Shown: positions 21,470-22,815 of the stretch, piece after piece
How positions within the stretch are numbered: the first letter of the stretch is position 1
How the letters are laid out: each line of letters opens with the position of its first letter
Assembly: GCA_963817955.1 (NCBI GenBank)
Contig: CAWFQK010000002.1
Span: 1,099,326-1,163,325 of the forward strand
DNA length: 64,000 nucleotides
DNA from: an uncultured Gemmatimonadaceae bacterium
Lineage (GTDB): Bacteria > Gemmatimonadota > Gemmatimonadetes > Gemmatimonadales > Gemmatimonadaceae
Reading direction: 5' to 3'
Translations under genes and position numbers: made by a program
Notes under the pieces: generated by a model
Databases searched by the model: none
The model's input: only the letters and a program-made list of their open reading frames with translations
What the model was told of the DNA's origin: nothing

Positions 21470-21490
21470 GAGATCCTTCGCTTCGCTCAG
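21470..21490 (+). repeat. REP-type element GAGATCCTTCGCTTCGCTCAG|GATGACA, split by IS110 #2 (remainder at 22730-22736)
   Basis: The rejoined sequence is the reverse complement of TGTCATCCTGAGCGAAGCGAAGGATCTC, a widespread palindromic repeat motif (from recall). Confidence 0.8.
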
Positions 21491-21512
21491 CAACTGTCTT
21501 GAAAGTCAAGGA

Positions 21513-22484
21513 TTAGACAACGGGGATTGGCGCGGCAGTGAGGTGCCAGGGCGTGTTGGTCCGGACCATGGCGTTCAGGATCGTGAGGAGTTTGCGCATG
21601 CACGCCACGAGCGCCACCTTGGCGGGTTTGCCGGCCGCTCGGAGACGAGCGTAAAACACCTTGAGCGCGGGGTTAAATCGCACGCCGACGAGGGCACCCA
21701 TATAGAGAATGTTGCGGACGGCGGCCCGGCCGCCGCTGATGTGGCGACCGCCGCGGCGCCGACCGCTATCGTCGGCAAACGGCGCGACGCCGACCAGCGA
21801 GGCGATTTGCTGGCGGCTCAGGGTGCCGAGTTCCGGCAACAGAGCGATGAGGGTGAACGAAATGCGCGAGGCAATCCCCGGCGTGCTCTGGAGGAGAACA
21901 TCCCGTGCGCACCACATCGGACTCGCTTCGATCGCGCGCTGCAAGTCAAGCTCGACCTGCCCGAGCTCGCGTTTGAGCCAGTTGATGTGCACGTCGAGCC
22001 GGCGTTGGGTCGGCGCACTCACCAGGGCTCGCCGATTCTGCTCGGCGGTGATCATGTCGACGAGCTGGCGGCGCCGCAGCACCTGCTCGGTCACCGCCCG
22101 CTCCGCCTCGGTGGGAGCGGTCGTGGCCGGCCGCAACTCCGGCCGCACACGCTCGGCGAACAAGGCGAGAAGCGCCGCGTCCAGGCGATCGGTCTTCGCA
22201 AGCCGACCGATCGCCTTGGCAAACTCGCGCACGTGGCGCGGATTGACCACCACCACGGGCAAGCCGGCGGCCGAGAGCGTTGCCACCGCCAGCCGCTCGT
22301 ACCCGCCGGTCGCCTCGAGCACGATCAGCGTGGGCGCCAGCTGCTTGAGAATGGGCACGAGCGCGGTGAGACCCGCATCAGCATTCGCGACGACCGACCG
22401 CAACTCGGCCAACGGCCCCGCGCTGGTGCGGCCCGCCACGTCGAGCGTGCGCAGACTCACGTCAATCCCAATAAACGATTCCAT
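21513..22484 (-). CDS. IS110 family DEDD recombinase/transposase (323 aa)
   Basis: [37 protein letters not shown] upstream of the ATG. Confidence 0.96.
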
Positions 22485-22544
22485 GTGCGCCTTGATGCCC
22501 CCACCAAGAATGGTCAACCAGTGAACCCCAGATGCCTGCGGGCG

Positions 22545-22715
22545 ATCGACGTGGCCCAACCTTGCGTTAATTCGGGGTGATCCCCGGCCAACTGTTCGGG
22601 CTCTACCGATCTGAAACGGGGTGGCGCTCCGGCTGAGCGACGGCCTCGAGGACCGCAGGATGAACGAGCTACCACCCCGACCAGCCATCCAATTTACGGG
22701 CGAGACTTAGTGATT
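22545..22715 (-). ncRNA. Putative bridge RNA of IS110 #2
   Basis: Target loop closed by GGGGTGG/CCACCCC contains TCATCCT and TCGCTCAG; donor loop contains ACAGTTG and GCAAG. RNA ends are approximate. Confidence 0.85.
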
Positions 22716-22815
22716 CTCAGAGATACAAGGATGACAGACAATTCGCCCACTCATTTCCGCGAAGACCCCCCTCTAGGGTAGACGCGCCGGTGTCACCGGA
22801 CCTCCGCGAAGGTCA

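Follow-up and report, generated by a model that had tools for sequence, protein, structure and literature searches.

A probable IS621-type bridge-RNA insertion sequence aimed at an abundant repeat in an uncultured Gemmatimonadaceae genome

The window analysed here, a stretch of 64,000 nucleotides (nt) from an uncultured Gemmatimonadaceae bacterium (assembly GCA_963817955.1, contig CAWFQK010000002.1, positions 1,099,326 to 1,163,325 of the forward strand), very probably contains an intact bridge-RNA insertion sequence of the IS110 group (IS621 type) at 21489-22727 on its minus strand. The original prediction, made from the letters of the window, had read this locus as an IS621-type bridge system, and that reading is borne out by the protein domains, the CT cores, a predicted two-loop RNA whose stems covary among relatives, the strand rules of the guides, the covariation of guide and handshake bases, and an abundant repeat as the target. 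The anatomy of the element, its complementarities and their covariation in relatives are the directly supported part of this reading. From them we infer transcription, circle formation, catalysis and any current activity. In the proposed mechanism, transcription of the left end would yield a bridge RNA some 150-180 nt long, whose first internal loop would pair with both strands of the host repeat TCATC-CT-GAGCGA and whose second internal loop would pair with the joined ends of the element, ACAGTTG-CT-TGTAT. A DEDD/serine recombinase on both loops would then exchange strands at the CT core, and the circular element would enter a repeat copy. Whether IS110 elements leave the donor site by a cut-out or a copy-out route is debated in the literature consulted. 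The features of the element are summarized in Table 1.

Table 1. Features of the putative bridge-RNA element, its junctions and its relic (window coordinates unless a contig is named).
Feature	Position	Strand	Basis
Insertion sequence, 1,239 bp including one CT (right-hand core)	21489..22727	-	junctions and uninterrupted repeat copies
Left target half TGTCATC (flank, in interspersed repeat; TCATC matched by left target guide)	22730..22736	-	sequence, repeat counts
CT core, left junction	22728..22729	-	sequence
Candidate -10 TATCTC, completed on the circle junction; overlaps right donor TGTAT	22720..22725	-	sequence; rejected by consensus scan
Target-binding loop module: 13-bp outer stem with one bulged A, internal loop, inner hairpin	22617..22679	-	folds, stem covariation
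Left target guide UCAUCCU, equal to left target plus core; predicted to pair with bottom strand	22657..22663	-	sequence, relatives
Right target guide UCGCUCAG, reverse complement of CT+GAGCGA; predicted to pair with top strand	22633..22640	-	sequence, relatives
Target-loop handshake guide CC; first C can pair with donor position 7 (G)	22631..22632	-	alignment
Donor-binding loop module: GCCC/GGGC outer stem, internal loop, CGGGG/CCCCG inner hairpin	22554..22601	-	folds, covariation
Left donor guide ACAGUUG, equal to left donor; match stops before core	22589..22595	-	sequence, relatives
Right donor guide GCAAG, complementary to CTTGT with one G-T wobble	22561..22565	-	sequence
Donor-loop handshake guide GU; G can pair with target position 7 (C)	22559..22560	-	alignment
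Recombinase gene, 323 amino acids, ATG at 22484	21513..22484	-	frame, Pfam, IS621 alignment
Candidate -35 TTGACT in right end, 17 nt from TATCTC once circular	21504..21509	-	
Left donor ACAGTTG, right end of element	21491..21497	-	sequence
CT core, right junction	21489..21490	-	sequence
Right target half GAGCGAAG (flank; GAGCGA matched by right target guide)	21481..21488	-	sequence, repeat counts
Left-end relic, 71 nt, 100% identical	contig C7:126284-126364 (81-nt match; locus L002 about 1491-1590)		

On the minus strand, the left junction reads TGTCATC (22736-22730)-CT (22729-22728)-TGTATCTC (from 22727) and the right junction reads TTGACT (21509-21504) TTCAAG-ACAGTTG (21497-21491)-CT (21490-21489)-GAGCGAAG (21488-21481). 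In a longer reading these are ...GAATTGTCTGTCATC-CT-TGTATCTCTGAG... and ...CCTTGACTTTCAAGACAGTTG-CT-GAGCGAAGCGAAGGATCTCGG..., respectively. All coordinates and junction sequences of the original prediction, with TGTCATC-CT as the target and ACAGTTG-CT-TGTA as the donor, agree with this reading. The dinucleotide core CT is present at both junctions, and the joined flanks form a precise empty site, the 17-mer TGTCATCCTGAGCGAAG. A search for such empty sites had been proposed with the prediction; in the 4.53-Mb, 9-contig genome the uninterrupted 17-mer occurs in 59 exact copies, in 175 with at most one mismatch and in 266 with at most three. The 13-mer covered by the guides, TCATCCTGAGCGA, has 114 exact genome copies against 0.14 expected for uniform sequence. 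Uninterrupted repeat copies have the same wider context as the window (GGAAATGAGTGGGCGAA... upstream; ...GGATCTCGGTGACC..AACAGCTTTTAA downstream), and this shared context on both sides fixes the boundaries of the element. No uninterrupted repeat copy lies inside the window itself. In public DNA, the contigs of three runs contained one 267-nt contig identical to 22361-22627, and none of them had a piece spanning a junction, an empty site or the circle.

The target had been described as a REP (repetitive extragenic palindromic) repeat. The term suits it as a highly repeated sequence, given the 114 exact 13-mers, and less well as a palindrome, since it folds only into a weak hairpin. This is a 5-bp ATCCT/AGGAT stem around GCGAAGC with energies of -2.7 and -7.4 kcal/mol in two copies, and its stability is no better than that of shuffled sequence (z 0.72 and -0.23). 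The repeat also belongs to a larger composite unit of a few hundred bases, found at 21226-21490 and 19484-19545 of the window and at about 40 or more places in the genome. Within it are tandem AGAGAACTGCR units and a block of 87 nt, of which there are about 40 copies at 87-100% identity. In some places two of the composite units face each other in inverted orientation, e.g. on contig C2 near 827,200-827,630.

The recombinase has both an N-terminal DEDD RuvC-like domain and a C-terminal Tnp domain, which match Pfam DEDD_Tnp_IS110 (PF01548, 8.1e-24, residues 5-151) and Transposase_20 (PF02371, 3.5e-15, residues 197-278). The closest matches in the Protein Data Bank (PDB) by phmmer, over residues 4-315, are the ISCro4 transposase (9t56, 8e-39) and the IS621 transposase (8wt6, 4e-34). 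Residues D8, E57, D99, D102 and S240-G241 align with D11, E60, D102, D105 and S241-G242 of IS621, in which D11, E60, D102, D105 and S241 make up the composite active site (Hiraizumi et al., PMC11208158). The claim of the original prediction that the element is intact is thus matched by a complete reading frame and by all catalytic residues. The frame from the ATG at 22484 to 21513 is the sole long frame that agrees with relatives. A 391-residue frame in the list of open reading frames was rejected; it crosses the non-coding left end and is without Pfam support, since the Pfam alignment begins at residue 5 of the 323-residue form.

The left end upstream of the gene is predicted to fold into two loop modules. 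In the minimum-energy fold of the target module, CGGGGUGGU-A-GCUC pairs with GAGC-GCCACCCCG, a stem that includes the GGGGTGG/CCACCCC pairing, and the internal loop has GUUCAUCCU on its 5' side and CGCUCAGCCG on its 3' side with a GCGGUC/GGCCGU hairpin between them. The closing stem and the small inner hairpin that had been proposed are therefore both present in this fold. In the donor module, a GCCC/GGGC stem encloses GAACAGUUGGC (5' side) and AAUUAACGCAAGGUU (3' side), with a CGGGG/CCCCG hairpin between them. All four guide segments of the original prediction lie where it had placed them: TCATCCT at 22663-22657, TCGCTCAG, the minus-strand DNA coding for the right target guide, at 22640-22633, ACAGTTG at 22595-22589 and GCAAG at 22565-22561. 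The left and right target guides match their target halves over 7 and 8 nt, respectively. In the donor loop, the left guide matches over 7 nt and leaves the core unpaired, and the right guide contributes CAAG plus one wobble. A strand rule for the guides of each loop has been given by Durrant et al. (PMC11208160), and it is obeyed by the element in the window, in the donor loop apart from the unpaired core.

Relatives were used to examine the predicted RNA. A recombinase search returned 22 loci in species genomes and 68 loci in metagenome contigs, with matches in 68 of the 401 genomes of a same-phylum sample (E<=1e-40). A pattern for both ends (CTTGTAT ... TTGAY-N7-AC-N5-CT, 1100-1800 bp apart) then gave 54 elements in 54 loci, which were reduced to 46 by removal of 8 exact duplicates of the non-coding region and to 40 by removal of 6 with flanks shorter than 9 nt. 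Loci without these motifs or cut at contig ends were excluded by the pattern (e.g. L005, L006, L011, L015-L017, L094, L097, L103, L105, L116 and L120), and several of them show the same guide-flank relations by eye. For the structure, 44 sequences were aligned with MAFFT, with L035 and L121 left out for long insertions in the donor hairpin. The same two-loop architecture is seen by inspection in nearly all of the 44 single-sequence folds. With the structure of the window element imposed on the unfitted alignment, 81.9% of cells are paired versus 68.4% in shuffles, and double changes are found in 19 of the 27 pairs. The covariation score is 0.391 versus 0.177 in shuffles, none of 500 shuffles scored as high, and slid controls reached at most 0.158. 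Run on this alignment, RNAalifold recovers no more than 13 pairs, those of the inner hairpin and the donor loop. In many rows the outer stem has its 3' strand displaced by one column, and this stem was therefore tested register-free and with a named structure. In the register-free test, the target-loop outer stem is complete (13 of 13 pairs) in 21 of 44 sequences, and 37 of 44 have at least 11 pairs, against a median of 9 for stems combined across sequences; most positions of this stem show several pair types. A covariance model built from the alignment identifies a single RNA of this type in the genome, that of the window (111.8 bits).

The guides change together with the DNA that flanks or joins the elements. 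Each guide in the 40 elements was scored by the greatest length to which an exact match extends backwards from the core inside the homologous loop window, and cognate pairs were compared with non-cognate ones. The left target guide has a cognate mean of 5.65 versus 3.05 for non-cognate pairs, with matches of at least 7 nt in 20/40 versus 79/1560. For the right target guide the means are 6.50 versus 2.88, with at least 7 nt in 26/40 versus 61/1560, and the match length of the window element (at least 8 nt) is reached by 23 of 1560 non-cognate pairs. The left donor guide has means of 6.90 versus 3.16, and 39 of 40 cognate matches are at least 7 nt long. The right donor is invariant in the relatives by selection and is therefore unable to covary. 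When targets were reassigned among the 40 elements, none of 5000 permutations reached the observed total; kin among the relatives share guides and targets, so that the events counted in these comparisons are not independent. The flanks lie outside the elements, and therefore the guide-flank match is not explained by shared descent of the elements. A relative with 73% identity in another Gemmatimonadaceae genome illustrates the relation: it has the guide AUCCUCAG in place of UCGCUCAG, and all four of its copies are found at CT-GAGGAGCG, the variant of the repeat in its own genome. Another relative has five copies in one genome, all at CT-AACG(A/T)C...CATCA, with a guide GUUCGUUAG that matches 6-7 nt.

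Guide-target covariation also bears on two other ways to explain the matches. The target might be chosen by a protein that reads the sequence or hairpin of the repeat, with the guide-like matches being incidental. Such a choice would have a parallel in ISPpu10, for which a stem-loop in the target adds specificity according to a recent report (10.64898/2026.03.19.712850), and the repeat described here can form the short ATCCT/AGGAT stem around GCGAAGC. This explanation is very unlikely; it is contradicted by the covariation, in that relatives with unrelated targets carry matching, different guide letters at the same loop positions, and the stem is no more stable than its shuffles. Alternatively, the matches in the left end could stem from a captured or degenerate copy of the repeat, and TCATCCTG is indeed common to the left end and the repeat. 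A captured copy would not account for the second segment, which is the reverse complement, rather than a direct copy, of the right half and lies beyond a conserved hairpin; the same geometry is present in relatives aimed at other sequences, and the repeat is often uninterrupted without any sequence of the element. We regard capture as extremely improbable, and the matches are read here as guides.

A further detail of the IS621 mechanism, absent from the original prediction, can be seen in the alignment. In IS621, two bases located 3' of the right target guide and two located 3' of the right donor guide form a handshake: once strands have been exchanged, these bases pair with the other DNA at positions 6-7, and pairing with their own DNA blocks exchange (Hiraizumi et al., PMC11208158). 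Among the relatives, the base after AG in the target loop can pair with donor position 7 in 44/44 sequences (C:G in 38, U:A in 6), and the base after CAAG in the donor loop can pair with the last base of the left target (position 7) in 37/43, with G-T wobbles in 4 more. Pairing of the handshake bases with their own cognate DNA is found in 1/44 and 0/44, respectively. In this alignment the family follows the handshake pattern as well, a separate line of agreement with the IS621 mechanism.

When the ends are joined by script, the predicted circle of 1,239 bp with one CT reads TTGACT-N17-TATCTC across its junction, as the original prediction had it. A candidate promoter would thus be completed on circularization. 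In an unfiltered listing, 13 of 14 right ends have TTGAY at the expected spacing, and several other loci are without it.

Several observations weigh against the reading as a working bridge element. After ACAGUUG, the left donor guide runs on into GC rather than CU, which leaves neither core base paired, while all four guides of IS621 pair with the core (PMC11208160). The right donor guide matches just 4 nt plus a wobble. The fold energy of the 250-nt left end does not differ from that of shuffles (z -0.14). The candidate -35 has 5 of 6 consensus bases and the candidate -10 a poor 4 of 6 without the final T, by a consensus that may not be that of the host, and a consensus scan of 21400-22900 in the integrated state returned 0 promoters and 0 terminators. 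Among the relatives, a left-guide match beyond the core is absent in 9 of 40 by exact matching, although some of these fit by a U-G wobble or a one-base shift (L013; the G198 copies). The set was chosen by the CTTGTAT / TTGAY-N7-AC-N5-CT pattern, and therefore the conservation of those motifs cannot be counted. A recombinase homologue was found in 0 of the 2 same-genus genomes searched (E<=1e-40), and the genome has one full copy of the element despite its 114 perfect 13-mer targets.

By all sequence criteria the element is intact, and there are signs of low activity in its host genome. It may be a genuine bridge element that is dormant or crippled here, having arrived once and being immobile or very rarely mobile since; we consider this possible but doubtful. 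Possible causes include weak RNA expression, the unpaired core in the left donor guide, and host control. Dormancy would agree with the single full copy, the single RNA found by the covariance model, the weak -10 and the absence of the element from both same-genus genomes, and IS621 itself is described as weakly expressing its RNA from genomic loci and excising inefficiently (PMC13626964). It would also agree with the base that follows ACAGUUG, which is G instead of C or U (C in most relatives). This G is nevertheless common to four other elements (L025, L027, L030 and L114; protein identity 69-74% or less) and is therefore probably tolerated. The intact reading frame with every catalytic residue also speaks against dormancy, as does a relic of the left end on contig C7, whose 100% identity over 81 nt speaks for a second, recent event.

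The C7 relic has the layout CCTGTCATC-CT-[TGTATCTC...GCUCGTTCATC-CT]-GATGACAGGCATCCCGTGTCCC.... Its left junction is the left half of the repeat plus the core (CCTGTCATC-CT), as in the full copy. No other full copy was found in the genome, and this second left junction likewise lies at the left half to which the left target guide corresponds. The relic ends exactly after the internal, guide-coding TCATCCT, with one G ambiguous. Beyond it lies GATGACAGG, which reads as the inverted left half of a further repeat copy and is accompanied by the upstream context typical of the repeat. The relic thus consists of 71 nt between two direct TCATC-CT sites with inverted left halves at both bounds. A CCTGTCATC-NN-GATGACAGG site was not found elsewhere in the genome. 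IS621 cuts after CT on the top strand and between the left half and the core on the other strand (PMC11208158), and both breakpoints of the relic coincide with the cut sites of this model. The origin of the relic is unexplained; it could have arisen when a full insertion lost most of its sequence or when a mini-circle inserted, and production by the recombinase is the boldest reading. Guide-coding DNA necessarily copies the left target and core and therefore may act as an internal half-site for the recombinase of the element itself. The relic fits this idea, which we offer tentatively and hold to be rather unlikely. If true, bridge elements aimed at abundant repeats would carry a built-in route to self-truncation or mini-circles, which could help to explain a single copy among 114 perfect sites. 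No second relic cut at the guide was found in five related genomes, which contained full copies and three diverged partial matches. 'Half-match' events have been reported for IS621, though not the kind of event seen on C7. Self-targeting of guide-coding DNA was not met in the parts of the literature considered, which were not the product of a dedicated search.

The element shares with IS621 of Escherichia coli (PDB 8wt6) the two Pfam domains and five catalytic residues, a predicted left-end RNA with target and donor loops, the guide strand rules, the CT core, the handshake positions, and the placement of a candidate -35 in the right end and a candidate -10 in the left end. It differs in that its protein is distant (phmmer E 4e-34), its host lineage is another one, with relatives from Gemmatimonadota and other soil groups, its right/left target guides match 8/7 nt rather than the 4/9 of IS621, and its left donor guide does not cover the core; it is also known from sequence alone. 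The best solved relative is the ISCro4 transposase (PDB 9t56, E 8e-39 over residues 4-315). IS1111-group or seekRNA elements belong to the same transposase family and follow the same RNA-guided logic. Their guide RNA lies downstream of the transposase, whereas the RNA proposed here lies upstream, in the left end. ISPpu10 and ISPpu9, IS110-family elements of Pseudomonas putida, insert into a short intergenic repeat with many identical copies, and the element in the window likewise sits in a short repeat of many copies. Those Pseudomonas elements are multi-copy and ISPpu10 has a GC-rich target stem-loop as a second specificity determinant, whereas the element in the window is single-copy and the predicted hairpin of its repeat is weak.

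Bridge-RNA elements are already well described, with 5,511 RNA-target pairs analysed by Durrant et al. and thousands of orthologues known (PMC11208160), and the present element is a good but ordinary example that leaves the known bridge mechanism unchanged. It offers a natural bridge system of a soil lineage that can be read cleanly and in full, with a long target arm (7 + 8 nt) and a natural target in more than 100 copies per genome. By its sequence it would be potentially active and reprogrammable, and together with its 73%-identical sister, whose right guide is altered alongside the host repeat variant, it forms a natural reprogramming pair. The element can serve as a comparison point for engineering and for how hosts hold such elements at one copy. 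The C7 relic is its single unexplained detail, and if made by the recombinase it would point to self-targeting of guide-coding DNA.

The left end also resembles a described small RNA (sRNA). At gathering scores, no Rfam family, bridge-RNA or other, matched the window or any of 7 related loci. The sole Rfam match to the region is RF02234 (sX15, a Xanthomonadaceae sRNA) at 22534-22691 on the plus strand, opposite the predicted bridge RNA, over the full model length; its 35.4 bits (E-value 1.8e-4) fall short of the gathering score, 55. Northern blots have detected both sX15 and the complementary asX7 (PMC3300014). On Xanthomonas plasmid pXCV183 (L123, 116378-116536), from which sX15 was defined, the minus strand has a bridge-RNA-like sequence and a truncated IS110 start MNGIGIDVCKAK, so that sX15 on the opposite strand would be the antisense partner. 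An annotated open reading frame of 98 amino acids beside sX15 on this plasmid has no similarity to the recombinase. sX15 and asX7 therefore appear to mark transcripts of an IS110 left end; in a literature search that combined the two sRNA names with IS110 and bridge RNA, neither name occurs in the ten matches listed of 44.

A second, different IS110-family element, also single-copy, occupies 19546-21225 of the window on the minus strand, with a frame of 480 amino acids at 19580-21022. Its insertion site, CACGGTC-CT-CTGCAG, belongs to the composite repeat unit that also holds the first element, about 260 bp away, and an empty copy of this site is found elsewhere on contig C2. In its left end, ACGGUCUU and CUGCAGAG fit its own target and CCUCAGAUA-CU fits its own donor.

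Some relatives show departures from the common layout. In a comparison of L006 (a Gemmatimonas genome) with L013, one of two copies lacks most of the bridge-RNA region through an internal deletion and has kept its ends and gene; a copy of this kind would therefore be movable only with RNA from an intact copy. In one metagenome, nine contig ends (L077, L082-L088 and L090) have the same right end of a more distant relative at CT-CCTGT, followed in most by an A-rich stretch, consistent with a multi-copy element with a consistent target. At L007 and L041, the left flank reads GACTCC-TGCTG-CT versus the guide GACUCCCCU, and the extra TGCTGCT resembles the right end of these elements themselves (CAGCTG-CT), as if a right-end fragment had been left at the junction.

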